DNA of 64,000 nucleotides from Takakia lepidozioides (taxonomy: Eukaryota; Plantae; Bryophyta), in NCBI GenBank assembly GCA_030704615.1, contig CM060731.1, forward strand, positions 58,094,001 through 58,158,000. The letters run 5' to 3'. Made by a program: the position numbers and the translations under genes. The notes under the pieces were generated by a model. It was not told where the DNA came from. It saw only the letters and a list, made by a program, of their open reading frames with translations, and searched no databases. This document shows, in pieces, positions 7,452 through 63,822 of this stretch. Each line of letters opens with the position of its first letter. The first letter of the stretch is position 1.

Positions 7452-7574
7452 GGTAGCCGTGGAGGCGAGACCAGCTACCGGGTGTAGCCGGGCACCAGGC
7501 CGAGATGCGGTAGTGTCGAGGGATTCCTTGGTGTCCGGCTACACCCCGTAGCTGGTCAAGCCTCCCCGTCTACC
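7452..7574. other. GC-rich imperfect hairpin (~50-bp arms, ~26-nt loop); MIRNA-like or MITE-derived
   Basis: GGTAGCCGTGGAGGCGAGACCAGCTACCGGGTGTAGCCGGGCACCAGG pairs with CCTTGGTGTCCGGCTACACCCCGTAGCTGGTCAAGCCTCCCCGTCTACC with a few mismatches and G:U pairs. Confidence 0.7.
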
Positions 7575-9266
7575 GGACGTAACCGAGGTGGTGGTGGGCT
7601 CCGGCGGATGACAGGCCTGTCCAAACGATGCCACTATACGTCTCGGTCTCACACCCAGTGTTGGGCGAATATAGACCCGTCAGGATATGAGCTGGCGTAT
7701 ATCAGCCCCGCCGGACGTCAATGGATTCGGATCTGGAATTTTCTTTTTTGATATCCGGTTATTACTCATATCTGGCGGGTATGAATTGGATGATATTCGC
7801 CAAATGTATTAGAACTGGATTGATCATCCGAATCTATCAGCCAGATATAAAAAAAAAGAAAAATTATTAATAAATTAGATTTTAATTATTTTAAAAACTA
7901 AAATGTTAACCATTTTTTTAAAGTTTCTGTTGCAAATTAATTACTGTTGCTAAAACACTCTTATGTTTCCTATGAAGCACTCTAGCGTTTCTTAGTTTTT
8001 CAAGCATCTGTGGTCGAGGACATTTTTTTAATTCAAAGTGGTAGCCAGACAGATGCTTGGAAGATGTCTCCACTGGGAAAGCAATTTCTAATGGACCACT
8101 TTCTAATGGACAAGGCCCACCCAAACTTGGGGGGCTTATTTGTTACCTTTGGCTTGTTTCTTTTGCAGTGTTAGTTTTGGTTTCCTGCTGGTTCTGGGGG
8201 CTTCGGTCCCCTGCTTGGTTCTCAATGGGGCTCTCGATGGGGCTCTTTGTTGCTTATGGTGTGTGTGCATGATGGTGGGATCAGAGGTTTTATTTTTTCC
8301 CCCCTAACAATTCCAAATAAATTTTTCCAGGGCAACTTCGTCCCCGGTTCTCTTATATTTACTTAGAAGAAAAAAACACCTGGCATGGCTTAGACGCTTG
8401 GAACCTCAAGCCCACTGGCTTGAATTGGGGCTGGTGTTTCCTCTTTGGGAAACCAGGTATGCTTATAAATTGAAGGACCTCAATGCTTGGAAGATGTCTC
8501 CACTGGGAAAGCAAGACAAGTAATTATCTTAGCAACAGTGTTTCATACTGCAGGTTTCTTTACTGGAAATAATGGAAGTACGAGTGTCAGTTTTGCAGCT
8601 AAAGAGTTTTCTTGTTTAGGCTGCTTGGATTTTAGCTTGAAACTGAATGCACAGATACAACACTTTGCCCAAGGGCCAATGTAAAAAAAAAACTGATTGC
8701 CATGCTGGAGTAAAGTTACAGATGCACCCTGTTGTCCTCAATAGACGGTGTGTATGCGTGGTCCAAATCCTCTCACCTCTACAGGTATCATGAAGACAAT
8801 AATCTCTCATGGATAGTGCGCTTGCTTCACATTCACACTCATCATCTACAAGGAGACACTTTACTTGACCTTGACCTAGAGTAACAGACAGGCAAAGCAG
8901 TATTGTCACAATCGCCACTGTCCACCCACTAAGCCATGTTTTGCATGCCCTGATCTCATATTCTGTTGCAATCCTTGACGTCCAATAATCTAAATCCACT
9001 GAAACACACGACCACCATAAACATTTTTTGAATTATCCCCAAGAACAATTGGATTTGGTCGGGACATCTAACCTCTGGATATATTCGCGAGACCTGGTCA
9101 TTCAGGAGAAAAACGATTTGGAAGACATGTATTAGATTGCCTTTGGCCTAATTCTAAATCTCAGTTGCGCGGAGCATTTTCCCTCACTTCCTTGCACCAA
9201 GACACAAGCATAGGTTGTAGAGTGGGTGGTAGAGAGTAGTCACTTAGCTGGATAGAATTGATCCAT

Positions 9267-10918
9267 TTCGACTGCAGCCTGGATTGTGCCCAATCCATCC
9301 TTCACAGATGTAACGTGGGGGGTGGCAGTAGCTCTACGAGCTGAAAATAAGCTCTGGTCTACCATACTCAACCATTTGGGGTAGGAACTCAAAGAACGGA
9401 GTCCCCTTTGCCCCAAACACGGATGTTGGCACCTTCCATAGCAAAGGGAGAGCTTGGCCGGGAGTGGACTAACTGGGGTTCACCATGTGCCACACTCAAT
9501 AGACGTCGATGATGGAAAGGATCCAGCTTGTTGAAGTTAGAGCTGCTGAGTGTATTCACCAATGTAAGGGAAATGCTTAGCAGTGCAGTCACATGCGTCC
9601 CTCGCCTCCCACTGAGTTGGTCACTACCATTTCCTGCACCAAACTCCTGAATGCCCTCCAAACATGTGTCCTCGTCTGTAAGTGCTGCACTCATGTATGT
9701 TTGAATGTCACCTATCAAACTGTTGAAATTCCTGCTATTCAAATTGGTAACCAGGTAAGAGGACGTGTTAAGCTGGTCTAACGAATCACCCAGGACCTCT
9801 ATGCAAGTGTCCAAAGCTGAAGCTTCCATCCCATTCCCAGCTGTTGGCAAGCTCCTCAGATGTGAGGCTAAGGAGAGTGACTCATTTACAGCTTGCATAG
9901 CAGATCCCATGGCTAGGAGGACCAGTTTTTGAGGGCTCGCCTTCTCGGCACCTGGGGATGAGGAGAGAGTTTGATTGCACACATCTGGGTACCTGAGAGG
10001 TCACAACACCATTTTCATAAGAACACTGGCCTGGAAAAGCAGACAGAAGTGCAAATGACAACTCTGAGCCTCCATGAATCAACTACATGACATGCACAAG
10101 GGAAGTTTTGTCAGTATTGTGGCAGGGGCTTATCATTATGAACAGTGTGCAAGTGCAATGCCTTGGCCAGCACCAAATCTATGAGTTTTCCCACAAGCAT
10201 TCACTCTGGTGTCCAGCACATGCGGGGACATTGCCTCAAAATTTGCAGCCAGTGCCATAGTGTACGATTCCTCACATTCACCCTTGTGAAGTGTCTGAAA
10301 AATGCAGCTGAAGCTTCTTAGTGCCAAGCAAACCGAGATCAGCTACATAAGAAGAGGATTCGAATTGCTTGGACTCCCAACTTCGTTTAACGGACAAGGG
10401 GGTTTCTCAATGGACACTTCGATTTCACGATGGGGCACAAGTAAGAAGTTTTCAATCGTTTCAAACATTCAGCAACACCTACTATGTAGGTTGCATTACT
10501 GATACTCCGAATAGACAACTGCGAGCGAGCGAACCTTCTAATTTCCCACAACACAAATAGATTGATCAAGTGTAGAGCTCTCTTACAATGTAGTATTGCA
10601 CAGTGACGTGATTGATTTGGCACTGACTGCAAGAGGGGCGAGTGTCTCACTTTCAACTCCTCCATTCTTGTGGGAATGATTTACCCCGACTGTGATGCCA
10701 ACTGCGGCCGCTGCAGCCACCAGGAGGAGAACGGATACAGCAACAGCGATCCAACATCTTTTTCCCGAGGTCTTCGGAACAGGTGGCTCAAAATCTCCAT
10801 TTGCAAAACTGTTGGAGGACTCAACTTTTGTGTAAGATTTGGTGCCCCCTGCGCCCACTGCATTCTTGGCCTCTCTCCATATCTTCTGACCTGGAGAAGT
10901 GGATTCTGATTTCACCAT
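9267..10918 (-). pseudogene. Type-I pectin methylesterase (TM anchor + PMEI pro-domain) with frameshifted and truncated PME domain
   Basis: Exon 1 (10918-10587) has a TM segment and ends ..LCNTT L|GTAAGA. Exon 2 from 9992 reads YPDVC..ALDTCIEVL..IQTYMSAALTDEDTCLEG..RRLL and stops at 9389-9391. A shifted frame continues YPKWLS..PHVTSVKDGLGTIQAAVE, after which similarity is lost. Confidence 0.8.
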
Positions 10919-12173
10919 CGGACGCCCTTTACTCTGCCACCCAATGTAGGGCCTCCTCTCTACTCTTGTGCGATTCTTGGTCCGCCTCCCTCAGCACGGC
11001 CTTGTCCTCTGAAAGCTTCTAGAAACCCATTTGTGCATATCCAGTGCGCTATACAGTTCCTTTGTATCTCCCGTGGACGAAACAAGAAATCCCGTTCTTT
11101 CTTCTATCTTGTCTCTTTCTCTCCCCGCAATGCATCTACTTCGAAATTTCATAAACAGCGTCTCTTCGGCCGGCTCACGCTTCTCTTCTGTTCTAAAATT
11201 CAAAGTCTCGGCTTGAATTGCATCACAGCGAGAGACCCAGTCTTGTCTCTGATCTGGCAATGAATCAATCACCTGCGGTGCGCAGGCAGGAAAGGAGGGG
11301 GCCGGTGTGCACGCATCAATGACTGCCACTGCGCCATAACCACTCTGCACACTACTAACATTTCTCATCCTCTACGGACAGTGTTCATCCACAGTGTTCA
11401 TCGCCTACGTTGCCGCGCTTTTGCCGATGAAGGAGATGAGCCACTTTCTTCGATTCGATCTCCGCAAAAGAAACTCAAGAGATTAGATGAGCACTCGACA
11501 GGGACAGATTGTAGAGCACTTTGAACTCAGGTGTGGTGCACTCATTTTTCTTAGAATTGAAGGAATTTCGGGGCAGTCTGTTAGTTTGAAAGCATCCGAA
11601 GCAGTCATTCTTCTTTTTCTCTGCGTTCGGAGTATGTGCTGGAAACTGAAGGATTAGGCGAGGTTTGAGTTGCAGTCGCGTCTCCAGTAAACGAATTGTT
11701 GATACTATCTGTAAGAATATTTTTGGAATGGAAGTGTAACGTGGCCCTTGAAGAGAGAGGGACGATGTCTCTCTCCCGAGAGATTTGGAGCATGCAGTAT
11801 TTTGAGCCGGTGCATTCCCATAGGAGGCTGAATCCAATGTAGGAAAAGGCTTTCTTCAGAACGCATTTGCAATAAACCATCGTTTTGCTGGCCCTATCTC
11901 CTATTCCTTTAATGGTTCGAAATATGGTGGAATCGGCATTCCTTCCATTGGAGTTGAGACCGAGAGGGTTCCGAGCATTTAAAGCCAATTTCTCAGGATA
12001 TAGGCTTAGATAGGCTTGATTTTCGCAATCACGCCTATAAGGCTGTTAAGAACGGTACTGCTCTTTTACGGTTCTGCTTGGTTATGAGCTAAGAGGAGGA
12101 CATCAAATCTATAAAGTGGCAACATACTGTAGAAACACGAGCTTCCCGTTCTAGTTGCCTGTTGCCTGTAGAT

Positions 12174-25025: not shown

Positions 25026-25264
25026 GAGCATTGGAGGGGGAGGGGATAATATAATAACAGTTTCATTTATTTCCAAATGGTTCAGGATCCAAATTTTAGT
25101 TTTCTAGTAAGTGGGCCTGCTTGTAGAGCCCACCAAAAAGAGAGGCAGAATTGTAAAATCTATACATCTATACCCCTTACCCTCTATATATACTGTTTTA
25201 AGGCGGTGGTGGAGCCTTCTAGAAGAGGGCCCACCGCCTCATCCCCACCAACCACCAACTCCTC

Positions 25265-28200
25265 CCGCCATTCTGGGCCAGAACTGCCCCCCCCAAAGCA
25301 ATGCCTGATGCATCAGTGTGTACATGAAATGGCAGATCCCATCTTGGATTTATTAGAATTGGTGCTGTTGTGAGTGCCCTTTTTAGTGAATCAAATGATT
25401 CTTGGCAAGCTGGAGACCATCGGTATTCGGCATCTTTCTTCAGTAGTCTATAGACTGTGAGCATATTTGGCCATGTACCTTCTGTAATAGCTCGTCTATC
25501 CCAGAAATCTCTTGAGTTTCTTGGGATTTTCTGGTGGTGGTATTTTCTGGATAACATCCACTTTCTTTGGATCCACCAGAATTCCCTATTGGCACACGAT
25601 GTGTCCCACCAATAATCCTGAATTCACACAAAATGTACATTTTTCCGGATTAAGATTTACTCCATTGTTTCTGCAGGCGTGTAGGCAAAGTTTTAACTGT
25701 GCCAAGCGTTTGGATTTCTATCCGAAGACACTGAAATCATCCAAAATTACCTACATAAAATTGTTGAAATAATTCTTGAATATTTCAGATACTGCTCACT
25801 GAAACGTGGCTGGTGCGTTGCAAAGTCTAAATGGCATGACTTTGTAAGCATAGGCTCCCCATTCAGTGATGAATGCGGTTTTTTCTCGGTCTTCTTCTGC
25901 CATCTGCACCTGGTTGTACCCACTGAACCCATCCATGAATGAGTACATCTCATGTCCTGCCACTGTGTCCAACACTCTCTCTGTGAAAGGTAGTGGAAAG
26001 GGGTCTTTCTTGGTTCCTGCGTTTAATTTGCGGTAGTCCACACATACTCGTAATTTTCCATTCTTCTTGGGTATTATCACAATGGGTAATAACCATTGTG
26101 GTGTCTCTACTGGGTATATGAATCTTGCATCCAGTAATTTCTTGATTTCTTCCCAAACTTTAGCTGCATAGTTGGGGTTCATTCTGTAACAATTCTAACG
26201 AATTGGTTTTGTGTCAACTTCCAATTCAATTCGGTGTTGATAGATGTTGGAAGGTATATCCTTCAAATCTTTGTAGTTCCAGGCAAATACATCCTTGTAT
26301 TCAGTGAATAATGCAGTGGCTTCTTGTATAAATGATTCTTCGAGACCTGCACTTACTCGTATTATCTAGGGTTCTTCCATTGTTCCCAGATTCACTTGAA
26401 TCAATTGAGTTTCTTCCGTTATTGTCCATCCTGCAATCTCCTGTCCGCTGGTTGCAATCATGGCAGATACTTCACTGATTTTAATGTCATCTTCTCTTTC
26501 TTGATAAAAACGGGCAGGGTGTTGAGGTGTGTCCATAGCTTCTTCCTCTGGATCTTCCGTTCTCGGAGTATTCGGTTCTCCTTGGGTGTTCACCATGTGA
26601 CATCCTACTGTTGTGGTATGTCTGACCACTAATTGCCCAATAGGTTCCAACTATGGATGTGCTGCATATACCGTGGCTTCTTCTTCATCCGATAGTCCAC
26701 TGGACTAGTCGTACTCTTCCACTATGCAAGGTCCTTTCTCTCGTGGAATGGTACCTCGTTGCTTTGTAGTGATAGTGACTTGTTCTGATCCCTTTTTGAT
26801 CGTGAGGGTTTGACTTCCCCAATCGTGGTGTGATTGGGCTTGTGTTAACCATGGTCGGCCATGGTCGCTGGCAGCTACCGTCCTCTTCTTCGGGTCTAGT
26901 ACTCCCTGCCTCTGTGCTTTGTGATTCAGTAGCGAATATCCTTTTGCTACATCCTCCATTATGAGAATGGTTACCGATACTTCGTATATCAGTTCTGCTA
27001 CTTCCATTGCAAGTCGTCTGATGATACCCAACGGTTGCACTTTTCGTTGATCGGCCATTCGTACCGTGAATGGAGCAGGTTCCATGTGCCCCAATCCTAG
27101 TGACTTCTTCATCCTCTTTGTCATGATATTCACTCCGGATCCTCCATCGATGAGTACATCCGTTACCAGCTTCCGTCCAATACGTACTTGTATTACTTGT
27201 ATTACTTCGTCGTAGTCTGGAGTTTGTTGTATAGTTGTGGGTTTAATCGTGTAAACTTCTGGTGTTGGTTTTTGTTTTGGTGTGGGGGTCAATGCCTCAA
27301 TTGCCCGAAATAAAGTTTTCTTGCAGTGTGGAGCAATTTTTAATAATTGTCCAATGGTAATTTGGGTCTTGGTCTGGCAGATTACTTCAGCCAATTCTAT
27401 TTCCGTGGTTGCGTTCGTGGTCTTTGTCGTTGGTATGATTTGATTATCTGGAGTTGGCTCTCCAGAAGGTATATGGGTTCCTTCTTGCATTTGAGCTATG
27501 GCTTTTCTTACCTCCTGGTGTAAGCTCTTTTCTTCCTGCCATGCTGCACTTTCTGGATATTGTTTTCGTTCTTCTTCAATCTCCTTATCTGGAGGTTTCT
27601 GTTCTTGGCCTGAGTTCGGGTTACCGCAAGGGTATCCACTACAGGATTTACCACACTCACGGCTACACTTGGTCCGGCTTCCATATTTCCCAATTCTGCC
27701 TCATGCTTGATTCGCAACTAGCATTCATGTTTCCAGTGTCTCTCTTTCTTGCAATAGTGACATCTCGTGATTTCCTTGTTTCTGGGTTGATGTTCTCTAT
27801 CCTGTGGTGGATAGTCATCTCGTGGCCTCTGATAACGATTACCCATATTGTATCGTCTTGGTCCATCCGATCCTCCCCGTCGGACTTGGACTTGGTGTAC
27901 CTCCACCTCTCGAGTGTACCCACTCTTCTTGGCCCATTGATTGTACATACAATGGTTGGTATTATGATGTTCATATGACAAATATCATAGTATTTGTCTT
28001 TCATGTGGCATTTTGTTGCCAAGTGTCATGCAGTCCTGCATTTGTGACACCATGTTGCCTTTCGTGGCCCTTCATCTTTAAAATTCTTGATAGCCTCTGC
28101 TATCTTCTGATCCAAAGTGGTTTTGTCAATCACTTCTTTCTTCTTTTGCTTGGGTTTTTCTTCATCATCATAGTCTTCTTCTTCCAAGGAATCCTTGGAA

Positions 28201-52857: not shown

Positions 52858-54242
52858 AGCGATCGCCAACTTGGTGGTCGCTCCATTTTCCGGAAAATAA
52901 AAAAATAAGCGACCGCCAGAACTGGCGGTCGATCCATTTTTCAGGGAAAAAAAAAAAAAAAAAAAAAAACCGCCAGAACAGGCGGTCGCTCCATTTTCCG
53001 GAAATAAAATAAATCAGCGACCGCCAACATAGGCGGTCGCTTCATTTTCAAAAATTTTAAAATAAATAAGCGACCGCCAACATAGGTGGTCGCTTTATTT
53101 TCAAATAAAATAAAATAAAAGCGACTGCCAACAATGGCGGTCGCTTGATTGTCAAAGCAATTAAAATAAAAGCGACGCCAGTCATGGCGGTCGCTCCATT
53201 TCCAACAACATTTTAATAAAAGCGACCGCCAATAGTGGCGGTCGCTGGATTTACAAAAAACAAAACAATTGCGGCGACCGCCCGTAATGGCGGTCGCAAC
53301 AATTAAAATAAATGCGACCGCCACAAATGGCGGTCGCTGCAATTACAAAAACAACAATACCGGCGACCGCCCCTAATGGCGGTCGCTCCATTTTCCTCCA
53401 AGAAACAAAAAAACGACCGCCAGTAACGGCGGTCGCTTCATTTCCAAAATAATTAAAATAAAAGCGACCGCCAGTAATGGTGGTCGCTGGATTTTGTAAA
53501 AACAAAAACTGCCAGTAACGGAAGTGAGGGGAGAATGACTGGGGGCTTCTATGCCCCCCCGCCTCATTCCTCGCTCCACGCGCAGGGCAGACCTCGTAGA
53601 AGCGACCGCCACCATGGCGGTCGCTCCATTTAAAAACAAAAAGAAACGACCGCCACAAATGGCGGTCGCTCCATTTCGTCAAAAAAAAGAAAAAAAACGA
53701 CCGCCAGTAATGGCGGTCCCTGCATTTATGAAAACAAACAAAAACTTCGAGCGACCGGAAGTGAGGGGAGAGTGGCGTGACCGGAAGTGAGTAGCGGTCG
53801 CTATTTCTTTTTTAATTTTGAAAAACAAAGCGACTGCCATAATTGGCGGTCGCGTTCATTTTGTTAATTTTCAGAAATGTATTTGCCACCGTTCGAGCGC
53901 CAATACGGCAGTCACTTGTTTTTTTTTAAAACTTAGGCGACTGCCAATACGACCGCCAATCTTGACTTGAAGCGACCGCCATCATAGCGGTCGCTATTTA
54001 TTTTTTTAATTCAACAAATAAAGCGACCGCCAGTGCGATCGCCAATCTTGCTTTAAAAAAAAAAACAGTTGAAGCGACCGCCAATATGGCGGTCGCTATT
54101 TCTTTTTCTATTCCAAAAAATAAAGCGACCGCCAGTGCGACCGCCAATCTTGCTTTAAAAGAAATAAAAATTGAAGCGACCGCCAATACGGCGGTCGCTA
54201 TTTCTTTTTAAATTTCAAAAAACAAAGCGAATAGGCGGTCGT
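52858..54242. repeat. Array of about 24 short palindromes AGCGACCGCC-N3-5-GGCGGTCGCT with ~51-bp period; probable subterminal array of a third CACTA-type element
   Basis: Units start at 53972, 54023, 54074, 54125, 54176 and 54227, among others; A/T-tract spacers; followed by TTTTACCTAGTA (CACTA-like end) at about 54317-54328. Confidence 0.8.
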
Positions 54243-54469
54243 GTTCATTTTGTTAATTTTCAAAATGTATTTGCCACCGCCACCGTGTCGGCGACGTGGC
54301 TGCTTAAGTGGCAGTATTTTACCTAGTACTATTTTTATCAGAATATTCCCCGAACCTGACGTGACGGAGGTCCTGTCAGCGTCAGGTCTGTCGTGACCTG
54401 ACACTGACGGACGGACGGACGTGACGCTGATAACCGGGCCGAACACCAACTGGTTATGGGTCATCCCTC

Positions 54470-56117
54470 CGTACAAAGTTCAGCGAAGAAGACGGGGTCC
54501 ATGGTTTGAAGTCTCGTGACTACCACAATCTATTGCAAGACATCTTGCCGATTGCAGTACGTGGGACATTGATTCCCGAGGTTCATAAGACAATCTATAG
54601 ATTGGGAGGCTTGTTCCGGTGGATTTGCTCCAAAGAGTTGGAGGAAGCGGATTTTCCACGCATGAAGAAGGAGGCGGCGGATGTAATGTGTATGTTGGAG
54701 ATGCACCTTTCTCCCTCCTTCTTTGACATCCAAGTGCACTTGATAGTGCACTTAGTGGAAAAGGCTTCGATTGCCGGCCCCGTACATTCTCGGTGGATGT
54801 ACTTCCTTGAGCGTTATAGAAGACTTTGAAAGGATTGACAAATGGCGCACCCGGAGGGTACCATGGCGGAGGGATATACGTTGCAAGAAGCTATGTTCTA
54901 TTGCACGGAGTACATGACAAGGATGGATGAGGAAGCCTCTCGGATGTGGAAGGAAGAGAAGGATGCACGAACCAAAGACATCATTTTGCCCAAAAAATCG
55001 AAGGGTAAAATTGCCGACCTTGGTGATTGAGCAAGCGCATGACTTCATACTGAGGAACACCCCATCCATACATGAGTGGGAGGCAAAATACAATAACCTT
55101 ATTCAGCAACGAGAGGAGATGCTTGCATGGAGGCGGAACCATCCAAGGCCGGTTACTAGACGCCCACGACGAGGAGCGGGCTGCCGAAATGTTCATTTAC
55201 AAAATTTGCCCATGGAATTGCAGCCTCTAAGTTCATTCCAATAGTGGCTTCGGACTTCAGTTTATGACGACGTTGCTCAAGGAGAGGTGGTTTCAGATTT
55301 GGTGCAAGACATTGCAAGGGGGCCCTCTCAATTCACGACCTCATACACGGCGGTTTGGGTTCACGGTTGTCATTTCCGCATTTGTGCTCTTGACATGAAG
55401 TGCAAAACAACCTTTGATTTTGGCTTGTGTGCCACATATTGGCAAGACTCCGTGTGGGGAAAGGGAGATACACAACCTGCTATGAGCAAACTTGAGTACA
55501 TTGGAGAGCTTGAGAGCATACTCTAACTTTAGTATACAATGTACCGGCCTATTTTCTTCAAGGGAAGGTGGTTCTAGCCACATCTTGTGGGGCCCTTCGC
55601 AACACTAGTGCAAGATAATTGTGGTTTCATGTGTGTCAATGCAGATAGGCTCAACCCTACTCATCGTCCCTCTGATGAGCCTTTTTCACGGCCTTCAGAC
55701 ATGGAGCAAGTTTTCTTCTCCGATGACAAAACAAGAGGGGGGAATTGGAAGGTGGTTGTGCACGCTCAGCCAAGAGGAAGACGTATCTATCATGGTCTCA
55801 AATCTCCATGGGGTGAGGCAATTGCGGTGGACGGAGAGACTGGTCATAATGATGTTGATGATGGAGGTTGGGTAGAGGGGGTAGAAGAGGATGATGACAC
55901 CTCGGAGAATGCATCCCAGACCTTATATGATGAAGCTCCAGAAGATACGGATGTTGGAGAAGGAGACGAAGACACGGCCATTGACAACGAGGTGGAGGAT
56001 GATTCGGAGGGGCCTTTTGAGGGCCGTGCCATTTATGACGATGACTCCGATGACCAAGAAGACTTGCAGCTTGATGAGGATGAAGAAGCTCCGGATGGTG
56101 ATGTTCAAGTTGATTAG
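54470..56117 (+). pseudogene. CACTA transposase C-terminal remnant of the outer element
   Basis: GLKSRDYH, PSFFDIQVHLIVHL, GPVHSRWMY, HPEGTMAEGY; inverted homolog of 36876-38247 with extra stops. Confidence 0.88.
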
Positions 56118-58820
56118 ACACGAAATCAAAGCTATAAACAATTCTCGCATCAAACTGTACCCATCCCTTCGATTGATTGTACATGTACATGCATATTGTA
56201 TCTTATTTCTACGGTTGATCAAATATGGTTGTGGCTGGTAGTCTTTCAAGAAAGAAGACAGAGACATTGAATACGTTGGAGCAACACATATATATATCAA
56301 AATGAATGTCACAATCTACAAGAAGGTCCACAACAACAAGCTAAACCATAAAGAAAAACAAACACCCTACCCCACTACCATATGAGAAAAAAAAAAAAAA
56401 AAACTAAGAACCCCCAAAGACCCTAAACCTAAACCTAGAAAGCCTGGCCGTTGTTGCCAGCAACCCCCACGCGCCGCACGCTGTGACGCGTTTTTAGCAT
56501 ATATGCGGCCAGGGGTCGCAAACAGCGACGGCACGCCGTCGCAGGATGCGTCCTGGTTTTCTTTTTTGAAAGAATTGGGCAGCCCCTGTTTGCGACGCCC
56601 ATCCGTCGCCAATGCATTTTGCCATTCATGCCACCATGCGACGGCCTGACATCGCTAACAAGGGCTGCGATGAAAGAAAGGGCAAGAAAGGGCTGCATTT
56701 TTTGCGCTGGCGACGGCCGGCCGTCGCCAGAAAGGGCTGTCTTTGCCCTTTGCTAGGGGGCGACGCGTGGGCGTCGCACGGAAGGGCTGCCTTCTGCCCT
56801 TTATCCACCCATGCGACGGCCGAGCGTCGTCGCATGGCCCCGGCGCCAAGTGGCAACCCGCGGTGTCTGTTTGTGACGTTCGGGCGTCGCAAAAAGACGC
56901 CGTGGGGTTGGCGTCGCATGCTCGGTGCCGCGCAGGGTGTGGGGCGCGGCTGGCGTCGCAACCCTCCCCCCCCCCCCCCCCATTTGCTGTAGTAACAGTT
57001 GCAGTGTGGGCATTGTGACAAGCACGGGTATGGAGAGGCCCAGTGTTATGGTTTGCATCCTGAGTTGCGCCCAGGCCAGTTCCAAGGGAACAATGGTGGC
57101 CGGGGGCGAGGTGGAGCAGCCCATAGAGGACGAGGTGGTTAGGCAGGAGGTGCAGGCCTAGGGCAAGCTCAACATGGCAAAGACATGGAGGTCAGGGTGT
57201 TGACCAAGGCATGGCCAACCGGCTTCAGCAGCTAGAGCAGAGGCTTGCTGCTATGGCCACAACTTAGGTGGTACCGGCTCCAAGGCCGGATGGTCCACCT
57301 CCTGCACTTGAGGGAGGAGACATGGGAGGCATGAGATTCATGTGCGGGGCAACTCTACCACTAGTGAGGGGTGACACTACCACTACCACTATGGGTGGGG
57401 CACCAATACCACTAGTGCAGGGCAGCACTACCACTACCACTACCACTATGTGCGGGGCAACACTACCACTAATGCCAGTGGAGTCGGCTGCGGCAGTGAC
57501 TCGAGGAGCAGCACGAGTTCCTGAGCCACGAGGTGCAGAGGTGGAGTTGGATCCACAGCGTGGGGAGGCAAGCCGTCAGGCCAGACTTCCTCAGTCATTC
57601 ATATTGGCGGAAACAGTATCGACGCATCCATGGCACCTAGTTCTCGCCCGACTGCTACCGAGGCGGAGGTTACTATGCTGGGAGAGCCACACAAGCAGCA
57701 CCACTACCTGCTGCCAAGGCTACGGCAGCTAGTGTGCTGCTGGGGGCGGCCACATCTGTGTGCCAGGCTCCATTGTTCTTGGCTACCATGATTGCGACGC
57801 CGGGGGTAAGACTAGCTGAAGTGTTTAGGCTTGGCAGCTACACTCTGTGAGAGTGGGGATGTTACTTCATCTTCTGTGGACATAGTGGGAGGTGTAGTGC
57901 CGGAGGGATCCTCGGATTTGAGGGTCAAGACTGCCACGACGACGCCATGGCCAGCTGCAGCTACCAGGTTGGTGAAGCTGCCAGCTAGGCCAGCCATTGA
58001 GCGCGCCATGGTGATTTCTGGGGTTGTCTTGTTAGACAACCATGATGACATTTTCTGTTCAAGTGGACTCGCAGGCAAGAGGTATCGGCCACTACGGGAC
58101 TTATTGGACTCGGGAGCTCAGCCGTTGATGTTGGGTAGAGCTGCTATTGCAGGCTTGGGCCTCACGGAGGCGGACATGAAGCCTTGCCCTTTCCAGATAC
58201 AGACATCTCTGGGAAGATCAGAGCAGGCTTAGGGCATGACACGGCGTGAGTTGGCTATCAGACTACGGCCGGATCATCCTACAGATGACTCAGTGATGAG
58301 AGCCAAGGCCATTGTGACAGACGCGGTCTCGTACGATGTCCTGGTTGGTGGGGCAGTGTTGTACCCCATGGGCTTCACCCTGGATTTTTGGGAGGAGTCA
58401 TCTTCTTATAGGCCTGGATGGCAGTCAGGGGAGGGCCGGCGTGTGCAGCTCATTGTGACGTTCATAGGAGGAGTTGCGGTTGCCCAGCGGGGCAAGATGC
58501 CGTTACTAGCAGCATTCACAGCTGCAGTGAGTTGGCCTGGAGAGTTGCTTAAAGACAATGCTCATTCAGAGGATGTGTCACCTCCGGAAGATCAGGATGA
58601 CATGTATGGTATGGCGGAGTTGCATGCCATGGTTGCTCAGACTCCATTGTGGGACACGAGCAAGGATTTGCAGCGGGTTGCTGATCAACGAGTGCAACAA
58701 GCCTGGGTAGAGGCTTTTGTACCATCAGGAGATGAGGAGAGTGCGGTGATTGCACTAGGACCACCTTAGTTGTCGCCATTGGACAACACACCTATCGTGT
58801 GGCAGTATCCGGATGAAGGC

Positions 58821-59790
58821 ATTTGCCTTCTAAACTTGTTTGGCGGGATCAGCACTGGATTAGCTGCTGTATATAGGCAGGTGTACGGGTTAAGAGGTAC
58901 CTGTATATAGAGAGGGATGCAACTGCATGATGCATCTCACTTCGCCATGTTGCTTAGTTAGTGCAGCAGTACCCTGAGTGTTTGCCGGTGTCTACGGTTC
59001 GTGGATATCAGCAGACCTTGCTAGCAGACATTTTGTTGCTGGGGGCGTAGGATTTGGAGCGGGTTGGCTCCATTCACTTGGTAGTGGCAGGTTGGCCTTG
59101 TCAAGGGCATTCATCAACCGGACATGGCAATGGATTGCGAGACTCGAGGTCGGGTCTGTTTTGGGAGATGGTGCGGATTTTGTGCAATTTACAGCTTCAT
59201 CAAGCTGTATGCATACATATTGGAGAATGTGCCACTGTTGGGCGATTCTCGGGCCAGGGTGATGGCCAGTGTGCATCAAGTCTGGTCGTGGCTTGGGTCA
59301 GCAGTGTTGCTGGATGCAGCTGCAGTGGGGTCACGGGTTCATCGTCCACGGCTATGGTGGACTAACTTGATGCCACCCGCATTGCTCAAGCGTGCATTTG
59401 ATGGGGTGCAACGGCCAACACATTTGACAATGGACAACATCTTAGACACGAGGAGGCAGTCTCAGCGTGTGAGACAGGATGACCGTTCTCCTTTGGCAGT
59501 GGTCAACAAGGTGGGTCAACCACGAGTAGCACTACCTACACTGCTCAGCTTCCCAAGATCGGATGCTTTCCGGGATGGTGGACCTGGCCTCATGTGGGAT
59601 GCTTAGTTGCAGCAGTTAGTGGAGCCTAATGCCGATGAGCGCGAGCGGGCTACGGGTTTTTCTACTTGGACCACGGCGGTGCATTCTCTTTCTGAGGCAT
59701 CACGTCGTCAGGTGTTGGGGCAAGCAATGGATCTCAATTGCTTGACTTGGATCATTAGCTTGAGTATGGCTGAGCAGTGCAGGTTGCGGA
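58821..59790 (+). pseudogene. DNMT3-like C5 cytosine methyltransferase domain within pol
   Basis: Motif I LNLFGGISTG, II YIERD, IV AGWPCQGHS, V SGLFWE, VI ILENVP, VIII HRPRLWWTN, IX ERERATGF, X RRQVLGQAM; stops and frameshifts present. Confidence 0.9.
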
Positions 59791-60689
59791 CAACTTCTTC
59801 CACACATGTCCCTTGACATACTCCCTGCCTACCGAGACGGTACAGGCAGTGAGTGGGGGCGAGCAGGTGAGGACCACAGGGTGTAGACATCCATGGCACA
59901 CGTGGGAGGTGCTCGAGGTTCAGAGGGAGTTGGCAGCCAAGGCGGCGGTGATGGATGAGGTTGGGGATTCTTCTCGGATTGAGGAGGTCCTCAAGGATGA
60001 GATGATGGGCCAGGATGAGGCCTTGTCATTGACAGAGCAGGCAGTGGGCACTGCTCAAGAGGTTGCAGCATAACAACCACGGGACCGGTCTCCTACCTCT
60101 AAGTCTGCTGGACTTAAGGTTGCAGTTACGGAGGACAATTGGGAGTCTGACATTGGACCTATTGTCATCGGAGGAGAGAGACGACGTATATGGCAGTTCC
60201 TGAGGGCTTACGGGAATTGCTTTGCCTCTCGTGATACGGTGGAGGAGCATGAGAGACATGTTCAGGTGGTGCATCGACCGGGTTTGGTCAATCGGGATGC
60301 GGATGGATTGAGTCGCAATCCATGCACAAGCCAGCAGGATGACACTGGAGCTCGGTGGCATGGTGAGACAGACGAGGAGATGGTGCCAGGATGGCATGCA
60401 TCTACCTTTTTGTGTATCTTGGCATCGGGAGGTCAGGTTGGACCTACAACAAGGATGACTGTAGACGGAGTGTCTGAGGACCCTGAGGCTAGTGATGAGC
60501 CAGGTGGTGCGAGAGATATACATGAGGATTTGGTTGTGTTGGACTACCTCCGCAATGGAGACACGACAAATCACTGTGACTGCCAAGGAGAGGGATCGGA
60601 TCCTACAATGAGCCAAGAGGTTCAAGTGGGAGGGGATACACCCGCTCCGAGTATGGGAGGATGGTCGGGTGAGGATTGTGCCTCACCCA

Positions 60690-61947
60690 ACACAGCGTGC
60701 ACGGTTAGTGCGGCATGCCCATGAGGAGTTGGGGCATTTTGGAGTGCGATGCACTCATACGTGTTGTTGGCGTGGTATGCAATCAGAGGTGCAACGGTTC
60801 GTGGCTAGGTGCATGGTGTGTAACAGGGTACCTGCTTCATTCAACGCCCCTACACCCCAGTTGCATCCTCTTCCGATCATGGGATTGGGCTACATGTGGA
60901 GTCTTGACTTCGCAGGACCGTTGTCACTGACGATACGCCACCACAGATATGTGTTGGTGATAGTGGAGCACTTCTCCAAGTGGATTGAGTTGGTTCCGTT
61001 GCCTGACAAGGCTAGTGAGGGGGCTGCATATGCATTCTTGGATCATGTGCTTAGCCAATTCGGTGCTCCAGCTGAGGTACTCACAGACCAGGAAAGAGAG
61101 TTCTTGGGGGAGTTTTAGGCTTTGTGTGATAAAGCCTTGATAGACCACCGCACCACTTCTCGGGATCATCCTGAGGCCGATAGCTTGGCAGAGAGAGTTG
61201 TTCAGACGGTGAAGAGGGGTTTTGCGCAAGTATGGCTTGCAGAATGGACACCTAGGAGATTGGGATCTTCAGGTACCTTGGTTAGCCATGGGCTATAGGT
61301 TCAGTAAGCAAGCATCACTTGCCTCCTTCTCACCATATTTCCTTCTCTTTGGCCGAGAGCCGGATTTGCCTGCAGCCATTCGTAGGGACACTGCTCAAGT
61401 TCTCAATCTTGACGATCCGGACGTGTGGGTATGTGTATGTGATCATCGTGCAAAGTTGTTCAAGAAAGTCATGCCCATAGCTTTTGATAACCTTGCCATT
61501 GCATATCACCGTGATACGTTGAGGTATGTCACTATACGTGGTGGAGGATATCGTCCTGGGGTTCGGAGGTTTAGCCCTGGTGACTATGTTTATTTGCAGC
61601 AGACTGCTCATACGACCCTGGATGTGACTGCAGGGCGTGTTATTCTGAGGGTTCGAGAGGTGTTGTCCTCAGGAATCATGATCTTGGAGGGTCGGGATAG
61701 CATGACTTGAAAGGACCATATGCTTAATTGTGCGCCATGTTACCTTCCCAATGTCGATGGCAGATTTGACCCAAACTTGGCAGTGGTACCTGCAGGTTTG
61801 AGGTGCATGTTCTGTGGGTCTGCCAAAGGGGAAGCCACCATGCTGGTGTGTGATCGATGCTCAAGAGATTGGCACATGGGATGCTTGACACCACCTCTTG
61901 AGAGGGTTCTTGATGGAGATTGGTTATGTCCACACTGCTTGGGATAG
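60690..61947 (+). pseudogene. Integrase with C-terminal PHD finger
   Basis: HAHEELGHFG..CMVC, WSLDFAGPL, VLTDQ; PHD CMFC..CDRC..HMGC..WLCPHC at about 61804-61938. Confidence 0.88.
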
Positions 61948-62207
61948 TGGCAGTGGATATGATTAGTGGCAGCTAACAAGACATGCGGGGCCGAGCTCAT
62001 AGGAGTCAATACACGAGATCCCAGGCTCAAGTTCACAGGTTTCAAGACGGTGATTAACGATGGGGCGATTCTCGCACCCGACCTTTTGATCTATCGAGTT
62101 TGAGTGTAGTAGGAACAGTGCTGGAGGATTTTGTGAGGCTATGGTCACTATCACATCTTGTGGCTACCTGGACTTAGAGGGACCTAAGCACCAGCTAGGG
62201 GGGCGAT

Positions 62208-62505
62208 TGTGTAGACTAGTGACTGCCATAGTGGGCAACATAGTGGCAGCCTAGTGACTGACTAGTTGCAGCCTAGTGGTTGGACTAGTGATGGACTAGT
62301 GGTATACTAGTGTGTGGTGTCCACAGGTGTTGTGTGGTTTTGGGACAGCGATGTAGTTGTGTATGCGCACGACACTATGTTGATTAATCAGTAAAGTAAA
62401 AATGGACGCATACTTTTTGGGCACCTTTGGCTCCTGAGAGAGTGCATTTGCTGTTCAAAATAATACCCCCTAGTGGTCCATTCAAGGTTATTCCATGATT
62501 TCACA
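62208..62505 (+). repeat. 3' LTR of the DNMT-Gypsy element
   Basis: Preceded by polypurine tract AGGGGGGCGAT; termini TGTG...CACA; internal CTAGTG repeats. The partner 5' LTR is not found in the window. Confidence 0.65.
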
Positions 62506-62599: not shown

Positions 62600-63822
62600 A
62601 ATTGACTCCATAATGAGAGAAGTTGAACAAAGAACAAGCCAAAATAGTGATGGAAGAGCTACACGAAGGAATTGCAGGAGGACACTTCAGCTCTGACCTG
62701 ACAGCAAAGAAGATATTATTAGCAGGTTACTGGTGGCTGGAGACACTTATGAACACTGTCAACAGTGTGATGTTTGCCAGAGGATGGGACCAATAGAACG
62801 AACTGGGAAGGGTGCTATGCACTACCAACAGAACCATTTCAATGCTGGGGACTAGACTTCGTGGGACCCATTAAACCTCCAGCAAGATACACACATAACC
62901 AATACATCCTCACTGCCACTGACTACACTACCAAATGGGTAGAGGCCAAGGCACTAAGAGACAACACTGCCAGGTTGACAGCCAAATTCTTATATGAAAA
63001 CATCATCACATGATTTGGTTGCCCACTGGAATTCGTTAGTGATCAAGGATCACAATTTATAAATGATGCCATAAAATGCTTAACAAAGGAGTTCATGATC
63101 ATACATCACAAGAGCACTGCTTACTATCCCCAAGGAAATGGCCAGGCCGAATCTACCAACAAGATATTATGCACTATCTTAACCAAGATAGTAAATGCCA
63201 ATCGTACAGATTGGGACACCAAAATGAACACAACACTATGGGCACTCAGGACATCATACAAGGTGACCACGAAACATACACCATTTCAACTGGTGTATGG
63301 AGCAGAGCACTATTACCCATTGAATGCATGATACCCACACTACGAACCGGAACTCATGAACGATGGGGTTTAGAGGAATCTCTACGAGTCAGGGAACATG
63401 AGTTATTTCATCTGGAAGAAGTTCGGACAGACGCTGCAGATAACATGGCACGAATTCAAGAACAACGAAGAAAAAGAATATCCGAAGGGAAAGAAAAATC
63501 TTTCCAGGATGGGGAAATTGTTTTATGGTTACCAAAAATCAAGAAAATGAAACTGGGAGGAAAATTGAAAATGCTATGGATGGGACCATTTCAAATCAAA
63601 AGGGTACATGACAATGGAATTGTTGATTTGCAGACCTTGGAACAAGAATTCGTGGGACGAATAAATATTAACAAGTTAAAAGGCTACAAAGGGATACATG
63701 ACAAAGCCCTTATACATGACGTATACGCCAACGAGGAAGACCAAACTGCAGATGAGGAGCGTGAAACCGCCAGTGCATACTACATTCATCACGACACGGT
63801 GAATCGGCATGTACTAAGATAG
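62600..63822 (+). mobile_element. Integrase remnant of a different Ty3/Gypsy element
   Basis: [52 protein letters not shown]; frameshifted. Confidence 0.88.

Follow-up and report, generated by a model that had tools for sequence, protein, structure and literature searches.

A PHD finger at the end of the integrase in a decayed Gypsy-DNMT3 retrotransposon of Takakia lepidozioides and in its relatives from liverworts to green algae

Introduction

The Ty3/Gypsy retrotransposon KnitGypsy-Dnmt3 of Klebsormidium nitens was described by de Mendoza et al. (2018, PMC5890265), and according to the sections of that paper drawn on here, its polyprotein contains an intron-less DNMT3-like domain between the protease and the reverse transcriptase (RT). 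The name "Gypsy-DNMT3 of streptophytes" is used in the available text of the preprint bioRxiv 10.64898/2026.05.21.726589. In this study, we analyzed a stretch of 64,000 nucleotides from Takakia lepidozioides (GenBank assembly GCA_030704615.1, contig CM060731.1, positions 58,094,001 to 58,158,000 of the forward strand), called the window below, which contains a decayed element of this kind with a PHD finger behind its integrase. A preliminary description of the window had proposed that the element joins a chromatin reader and a writer of DNA methylation, in analogy to the ADD domain of DNMT3, and that it may couple histone-guided integration to methylation.

Several known systems resemble this element in part. 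In chromoviruses (e.g., MAGGY), as in the window element, a histone-reader module is located after the C-terminal domain of the integrase, and integration is presumed to be guided by chromatin; that chromodomains direct Gypsy integration is cited in the consulted text of PMC6673714 and of 10.1101/2021.11.30.470311, which also call PHD fingers in retrotransposons widespread. Unlike in chromoviruses, the reader in the window is a PHD finger, and Pfam shows only PHD families and no Chromo domain after the integrase; by analogy, the window element may act like a chromovirus, but it is not one. Gypsy-7a_cRei of Chlamydomonas reinhardtii (Craig et al. 2022, PMC9940879) is likewise a large Gypsy element with a PHD in its Gag-Pol, active in laboratory strains and biased toward intergenic insertion; compared by its published description only, it differs in that the domain legend of that paper lists no DNMT and places the PHD before the integrase. 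The EpiLTRs of Cymbomonas and Euglena, reported in the preprint cited above, are long terminal repeat retrotransposons that also join chromatin-reader and DNA methyltransferase domains, but as that text presents them, they combine a chromodomain with a DAM adenine methylase and a DNMT4-like enzyme, whereas elements of the window kind combine a PHD with a DNMT3-like enzyme and have no DAM. The term "PHD" is absent from the main text and three supplements of PMC5890265, and in the literature searched as text (figures apart), no mention of a PHD finger in a Gypsy element with a DNMT was found. The window element is one of the published Gypsy-DNMT3 kind. Gypsy elements with a PHD have been published as well, and the pattern at the family level is partly in print.

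Results

A complete PHD finger ends the integrase frame of the window element

Positions 61213-61947, translated in one frame, encode a 165-residue integrase C-terminal domain, a TGA codon, a 31-residue linker, the finger, and a terminal TAG. In the Pfam search, residues 32-76 of a 78-residue stretch matched PF00628 over the full profile (positions 1-47 of 47) with 43.3 bits and an E value of 3.8e-11, above the curated cut-off of 24 bits. The ligands follow the pattern C-x2-C-x11-C-x2-C-x4-H-x2-C-x14-C-x2-C with canonical spacing, and the finger ends in W-x-C-P-x-C. A scan of the window in all six frames found this Cys4-His-Cys3 pattern a single time, and 100 shuffled sequences gave no instance of it. 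These results show that the finger is a genuine PHD; it is the native C-terminal module of a Gypsy-DNMT3 integrase, in a dead copy.

The preliminary description had reported a complete Cys4-His-Cys3 PHD with the W-x-C-P-x-C ending, in the same frame as the integrase and separated from it by one TGA, and both the translation and the PF00628 match agree with this. Its statement that the finger follows the integrase in frame holds for the C-terminal domain; the zinc-binding domain and the catalytic core (Pfam matches on 60612-61118, PF17921 with E 2.6e-7 and PF00665 with E 2.6e-9) lie in another frame because of a frameshift. It had also placed the finger at the position where chromoviruses carry their chromodomain, and indeed the finger sits after the integrase C-terminal domain.

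The integrase-PHD fusion is shared by a large green-lineage family

We searched protein databases with the integrase C-terminal part and PHD of the window, with the break read through as X (query P0001). A word-indexed search gave 34 matches, 27 of which contained PF00628, while the other 7 spanned only 11-76% of the query. The best named matches were liverwort proteins, led by Mp_7g09570 of Marchantia polymorpha (72%) and followed by proteins of Calypogeia and Riccia. A HMMER search against 1.84 billion representative sequences returned 3827 matches at E<=1e-3 and 294 at E<=1e-30; among the best 150 listed, the best-matching stretch ran through query residue 239 or beyond in 145, so that the PHD was included, and the remaining 5 (P0098, P0130, P0148, P0158, and P0164) stopped at query residues 197-230. 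Because these queries contained the finger themselves, the search was repeated with a PHD-free query, the Klebsormidium integrase (residues 1200-1575 of P0032), and PF00628 was present in 110 of the 120 relatives listed (our own count from a precomputed column of the table). Named hosts of the relatives include Klebsormidium nitens, Haematococcus lacustris, Scenedesmus sp., Tetrabaena, Pleodorina, and two Volvox species. These sequence comparisons indicate that the fusion of the PHD to the integrase runs through the family in liverworts, Klebsormidium, and chlorophyte green algae.

The KnitGypsy-Dnmt3 protein itself (KFL_009030040, which is P0032) matched the integrase C-terminal part of the window with an E value of 7.8e-39 and 54% identity, and its integrase is 50-55% identical to that of the bryophyte group. 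P0032 is partial and ends just before the finger, and P0219, which is 79% identical to the P0032 integrase, has the finger. Unlike KnitGypsy-Dnmt3, the element in the window is a dead copy, and among named sequences it is closest to the liverwort proteins.

The preliminary description would have been contradicted by intact copies with the PHD missing or out of frame; in fact, the finger is present and in frame in P0182, P0184, P0223, and locus L038. The polyprotein ends no more than 3 residues after the PHD match in P0182 and within 13 residues of it in the second open reading frame (ORF2) of L038. All eight ligands are kept in 272 of the 290 family PHDs, and most of the other 18 are cut at the end or have His for the last Cys. 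Between loci L036 and L038, the ratio of nonsynonymous to synonymous substitutions (dN/dS) was 0.044 in the PHD (45 codons), 0.028 in the RT, 0.028 in the integrase core, and 0.117 in the DNMT, ratios that are rough because dS (1.2-2.0) is near saturation. With a dN/dS of about 0.04, the sequences indicate that the family PHD is under purifying selection.

DNMT and PHD are paired in two architectures

The co-occurrence of the two domains was counted with our own profiles, which were built from Pfam-delimited segments and run on all 315 collected family proteins. The results showed both DNMT and PHD in 132 proteins, PHD without a detected DNMT in 158 (many of them fragments), and DNMT without PHD in 8. 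DNMT, RT, RNase H, integrase, and PHD stand in one intact ORF in P0182 (2811 residues), P0184 (2391 residues), and P0223 (2358 residues), and intact relatives as a group encode protease, DNMT, RT, RNase H, integrase, and PHD. L036 and L038 are also intact and consist of two ORFs in the same frame, in which ORF1 (gag-protease-DNMT) is separated by one stop from ORF2 (RT-RNase H-integrase-PHD). The claim that one element carries both DNMT and PHD is therefore confirmed: pairing at the element level is real and common.

The position of the DNMT differs within the family. In the window-type architecture it lies between protease and RT, as in P0182, P0184, P0223, and P0032 of K. nitens; in the commoner one it lies between RNase H and integrase (123 of the 174 typed proteins, the named chlorophyte ones included; examples are P0070, P0185 from Scenedesmus, P0026, P0050, and P0121). 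A single change parts the two on a FastTree phylogeny of the integrase-to-PHD region (166 rows), a quick method that flagged several long branches. The two positions may reflect one capture with relocation or two captures. Members with PHD and no DNMT also exist: in P0286 and P0266, 430-645 residues precede the RT, with no DNMT there. In P0288 (2306 residues), RT, RNase H, DNMT, and integrase are followed by a PHD (1923-1967) and directly afterwards by a chromodomain (1993-2043), so that two readers and a methyltransferase are found in one polyprotein.

Of 113 near-complete family DNMT domains, 108 have retained the catalytic Cys together with E-N in motif VI, and the best PDB matches of the intact L038 DNMT are DNMT3A/B/C (E about 6e-8, vs. 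5e-5 or worse for bacterial enzymes). As for the Gypsy affiliation, P0015 matched the Ty3 Gag-Pol (7q5b) with an E value of 2.2e-94, and the intact relatives have the order protease-RT-RNase H-integrase. The related locus L046 has split direct repeats of the form A...coding...B-A-B (2255-2554, 10896-11010, 11008-11307, and 11351-11465), like the DIRS-like split A...B-A-B repeats given for KnitGypsy-Dnmt3 in the legend of Fig. 4c of PMC5890265. No terminal repeats were detected in L003, L036, and L038 within the locus sequence examined.

The TGA before the PHD is a private mutation, and another stop is conserved

The preliminary description had raised read-through of the TGA between integrase and PHD. 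We compared the homologous codon in 80 related loci taken from metagenome contigs; the junction motif was located in 69 of them, and the codon was TGG in 56, TAG in 9, TGT or TGC in 4, and TGA in none, counts that are not independent since some contigs overlap. The TGA was found in the window alone, and Trp aligns with it in the closest proteins P0002, P0004, and P0014. Since most loci have TGG here, the TGA is no recoding site; programmed read-through at this codon is ruled out, and the idea did not survive the comparison. The window TGA is a private G-to-A nonsense mutation in a dead copy.

Another stop codon, located between the DNMT and the RT, is conserved. Of 21 sequences from three diverged lineages, 20 (the window and all but one of the 20 loci) have a stop with CAR-YYN behind it at the same place before the RT; the codon is TAG in 15, TAA in 5, and GAG in one locus, and it lies at 4661 in L036, 5083 in L038, and 60071 in the window. 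This in-frame DNMT/RT stop distinguishes the bryophyte lineages from KnitGypsy-Dnmt3: it is absent from the continuous polyproteins of Klebsormidium (P0032), P0182, P0184, and P0223. Many database ORFs of about 1030-1150 residues start about 90-210 residues before the RT, 11 of them 94-125 residues before it, which fits a stop at this place. The context CAR-YYA is the tobamovirus-type read-through signal of plant viruses. Judged by its sequence context, the TAG/TAA-CAR-YYN before the RT looks like a candidate leaky stop.

The nearest solved relatives of the finger read unmodified H3K4

By phmmer against PDB, the nearest solved sequences are CHD4 PHD1/2 (1.6e-14) and KDM5A PHD1 (2.5e-12), and further near matches are KDM5B PHD1, PHF21A/BHC80, Lid, ATXR5, WSTF, PHF12, DPF3, AIRE, and UHRF1. 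In the AlphaFold model of the L038 integrase C-terminus (7474-8226), a helical part, an SH3-like barrel, and a less confident linker are followed by the finger, whose predicted local distance difference test score is 89-94. The modeled L038 finger superposed by Foldseek at 0.7-2.3 A on DPF2/3, BAZ2A, ATXR5, UHRF1, and BHC80; the fold was tested on this model and not on the window copy, with root-mean-square deviations (rmsd) of 0.7-1.7 A to DPF2, DPF3, BAZ2A, UHRF1, and ATXR5, and the BAZ2A comparison structure was solved with an unmodified histone H3 lysine 4 (H3K4) peptide. For the integrase C-terminal barrel together with the PHD, the top Foldseek matches were the Tudor-PHD cassettes of PHF1, MTF2, and UHRF1, but with rmsd of 13-16 A we do not take them as evidence of a shared two-domain architecture; the likeness in domain order may be superficial. 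The tryptophan of a trimethyl-lysine cage stands two residues before the His ligand. In the alignment, no residue was aligned with this cage tryptophan, and the solved fingers that come closest are readers without a cage.

In sequence and fold, the best matches are the PHDs that read unmodified H3K4 (KDM5A/B PHD1, BHC80/PHF21A, CHD4, AIRE, DPF3, BAZ2A, and ATXR5, and the ADD of DNMT3A/3L), and the family shares with them a third Cys that is preceded by a hydrophobic residue and followed by Asp, as well as a G-x-W loop. The reader class differs in that its members are cellular chromatin regulators and do not belong to a mobile element, and in that the window sub-lineage has no acid before the first Cys. 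In the text available from the review PMC3241642, the fingers of BHC80, AIRE, CHD4, DPF3, and DNMT3A/3L belong to the unmodified-H3K4 subset, which has no aromatic cage and in which the first Cys is preceded by acidic residues and the third by a hydrophobic one. The parallel with the DNMT3 ADD drawn in the preliminary description is consistent with this placement of the nearest solved relatives in a class that includes DNMT3A/3L.

For KDM5B PHD1, the consulted part of PMC4225485 gives contacts of D308 with K4, E321 with T3, D328 with R2, and P347, G349, and W351 with A1, as well as L324-326. The window residues aligned with these contacts are, in sequence order, no acid (D308), E, M-L-V, D, L (the Pro is lost), G, and W. 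At the third Cys the window has V-C-D, and in the family Asp follows this Cys at a frequency of 0.91 and Leu precedes it at 0.75. The A1 loop P-x-G-x-W reads L-D-G-D-W in the window, with family frequencies of 0.99 for Pro, 0.90 for Gly, and 0.88 for Trp. Depending on the architecture group, 60-76% of the family fingers have an acidic residue in the six positions ahead of the first Cys.

The window copy is a decayed element

The features of the element are listed in Table 1. About 400 residues are deleted from the window copy, comprising the RT and most of RNase H, and the first approximately 50 residues of the RT frame remain. PF00145 matched the DNMT region at 59051-59365 with an E value of 9.5e-9, and motifs I, IV (P-C-Q), VI (E-N-V), and VIII are still legible in the translation. 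With its frameshifts, stops, and loss of RT/RNase H, the window element is a dead, decayed, and non-autonomous copy.

Downstream of the finger, a block of 50 nucleotides (62162-62211) is 88-92% identical to about 25 loci, compared with about 65-70% identity in coding sequence, and the alignment with relatives falls apart immediately past GGGGGGCGA; this conserved block followed by abrupt divergence fits a polypurine tract and then the start of the 3' repeat. Self-comparison of the window revealed no second copy of the element and no repeat pair flanking it.

Table 1. Features of the Gypsy-DNMT3 remnant in the window (positions within the 64,000 nucleotides; L038 is a related intact locus).
Feature	Position	Strand	Basis
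Weak gag-like segment, approximate 5' limit of the remnant	56996..57073	+	tblastn with L038 ORF1 residues 413-438, E 5e-4; unrelated upstream repeat stops at 56970
Aspartic protease region, D-S-G-A at 58107-58118, in-frame stop at 58230-58232	57945..58871	+	tblastn with L038 ORF1 659-955; translation
DNMT3-like C5 cytosine methyltransferase in two frames (58859-59203, 59211-59777)	58859..59777	+	PF00145; tblastn with L038 ORF1 952-1259; own DNMT profile
TAA followed by CAA CCA CGG, candidate leaky stop between DNMT and RT frame	60071..60082	+	stop at the same place in relatives
Start of RT frame fused to RNase H tail	60134..60559	+	tblastn: L038 ORF2 22-70 at 60134-60268, 469-571 at 60227-60559
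Integrase zinc-binding domain (H2C2) and catalytic core	60570..61238	+	PF17921, PF00665; 66% identity to L038 ORF2 575-802
Integrase C-terminal domain (helical part and SH3-like barrel), in the PHD frame	61213..61707	+	62% identity to L038 ORF2 797-1034; alignment; AlphaFold of the L038 homologue
TGA, nonsense form of an ancestral TGG (Trp)	61708..61710	+	codon comparison in 69 loci
Integrase-PHD linker with conserved P-C-H/Y-L-P motif	61711..61803	+	translation, alignment, junction comparison
PHD finger, Cys4-His-Cys3	61804..61938	+	PF00628, E 3.8e-11; phmmer vs. PDB; unique in the window
TAG, end of polyprotein	61945..61947	+	translation
Purine-rich block before the start of the 3' terminal repeat, probable polypurine tract	62162..62211	+	conservation; divergence after it

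Other repeats surround the element. A separate repeat with long ORFs lies directly upstream (54744-56970, + strand) and has an inverted second copy at 38243-35931 (- strand) with 80-90% identity. Positions 52872-54272 hold an array of units of about 51 nucleotides, in each of which an A-rich spacer surrounds a palindromic GCGACCGCC...GGCGGTCGC core; a tandem repeat of 102 nucleotides comes after the array. Decayed fragments of other, unrelated Gypsy elements are found just downstream (62600-63822, + strand, integrase) and at 25222-26194 (- strand, RT and RNase H).

Discussion

Our results identify the finger in the window as the integrase PHD of a Gypsy-DNMT3 element. From the sequence comparisons, the L038 model, and the analogy with chromodomains, we predict with moderate confidence that in active relatives this PHD binds the H3 N-terminal tail, likely tethering integration to nucleosomes. 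The family finger would prefer tails without K4 trimethylation, and its binding would tether the integration complex to chromatin and bias the choice of insertion sites. The DNMT from the upstream gag-protease-DNMT frame would act separately, perhaps on the cDNA or the new copy, and reader and writer would cooperate at most at the level of the element and not as one protein. Judged from the contact residues, most members are likely to select unmodified K4, and for the window sub-lineage this is uncertain. Chromatin tethering is proposed because of the analogy with chromovirus chromodomains, and we also count as support the intergenic insertion of the PHD-bearing Gypsy-7a_cRei at 2.6 times expectation, as stated in the consulted part of PMC9940879. 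Several points weigh against the prediction. The window copy has lost the Pro that 99% of the family keeps in the H3 Ala1-anchoring loop and carries Leu instead, and its sub-lineage has no acidic residue at positions -6 to -1 before the first Cys, which is the K4-reading feature named by the review. That review (PMC3241642), in the part consulted, also notes that some PHD fingers bind non-histone partners. Finally, the isolated DNMT of KnitGypsy-Dnmt3 gave no methylation in yeast, a test that its authors called inconclusive in the text of PMC5890265, and for this reason the writer half is unproven.

A more direct coupling has to be considered, in which the PHD would serve the DNMT as the ADD serves DNMT3A, so that binding of unmethylated H3K4 targets or activates the element's methyltransferase, and integration and methylation take place at the same nucleosome. 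The joint presence of DNMT and PHD in 132 of 315 family proteins speaks for it, as does the membership of the nearest solved relatives in the unmodified-H3K4 class with DNMT3A/3L, and the inactivity of the isolated Klebsormidium DNMT in yeast would fit the need for a partner domain. The chlorophyte order RT, RNase H, DNMT, integrase, PHD (123 of 174 typed proteins) puts the DNMT next to the integrase, so that a single mature DNMT-integrase-PHD protein is conceivable there. In the window lineage, however, the DNMT lies before the RT and upstream of the conserved stop, and the two domains would be separate products or far apart in a polyprotein; moreover, P0286 and P0266 have kept the PHD without a DNMT. 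A single reader-writer protein in the window lineage is unlikely, because RT, RNase H, integrase, and a conserved in-frame stop lie between DNMT and PHD. We therefore regard direct coupling as unlikely, and histone-guided integration coupled to methylation, as the preliminary description had it, is speculation.

Other readings concern the ligand of the finger. It could read H3K4me3 or another active mark, so that insertion would be steered to active genes or to promoters: according to the part of PMC3241642 consulted, H3K4me3 is the mark read by many PHD fingers, the PHDs of cnidarian retrotransposons are PYGO-like H3K4me readers in the text of 10.1101/2021.11.30.470311, and the lack of the acid before the first Cys in the window sub-lineage would be compatible with this. 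The comparison with solved structures argues otherwise, as no classical reader (ING, BPTF, TAF3) is among the 60 PDB matches listed, the only Trp near the His ligand directly precedes the His, where KDM5, CHD4, and BHC80 have Tyr or Phe, and nothing is aligned with the cage Trp that the consulted text of PMC3241642 calls invariable; we consider this reading very improbable. It is also rather improbable that the finger binds no histone and is a structural zinc module of the intasome or a ligand of a host factor or DNA. A few PHD fingers do bind non-histone proteins (PMC3241642, in the part consulted), but the KDM5B-type contacts to A1, R2, and T3 are conserved in the family (Asp 0.91, Pro 0.99, Gly 0.90, Trp 0.88). 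As to the finger being a chance ORF, a host exon captured by the window copy alone, or the product of programmed TGA read-through, the stop codon between finger and integrase in the window could suggest it, but in hundreds of relatives finger and integrase are joined without a stop or gap, which rules out single-copy capture of a host exon, and 56 of the 69 loci have TGG at the codon while not one has TGA; this explanation is already refuted, and we give it next to no weight.

A broader scenario would join these strands. In it, an ancient green-lineage Gypsy clade would have its own epigenetic toolkit: the H3-tail reader on the integrase would pick chromatin without K4 methylation, and the DNMT3-type enzyme would methylate the new copy or its surroundings at insertion. 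The chlorophyte DNMT-integrase-PHD would be one mature protein, a mobile counterpart of the ADD and methyltransferase of DNMT3, and in bryophytes the leaky TAG/TAA-CAR-YYN stop would set the ratio of DNMT to integrase-PHD. Taken as a whole, this scenario is unlikely.

The window copy itself is an ordinary dead relic, and whatever value it has comes from the pattern seen across the family. Two general questions, the choice of insertion sites by retrotransposons and the reason why a DNMT is found in some of them, meet in this very large family, which ranges from chlorophytes to liverworts and joins both features. It also offers natural variants for experiments, with the DNMT before the RT, the DNMT fused to the integrase, no DNMT, or a PHD together with a chromodomain. 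Should the PHD prove to be a reader of unmodified H3K4, active promoters would be avoided by these elements, which could also mark their own copies; this is relevant to the co-evolution of host methylomes and transposons.

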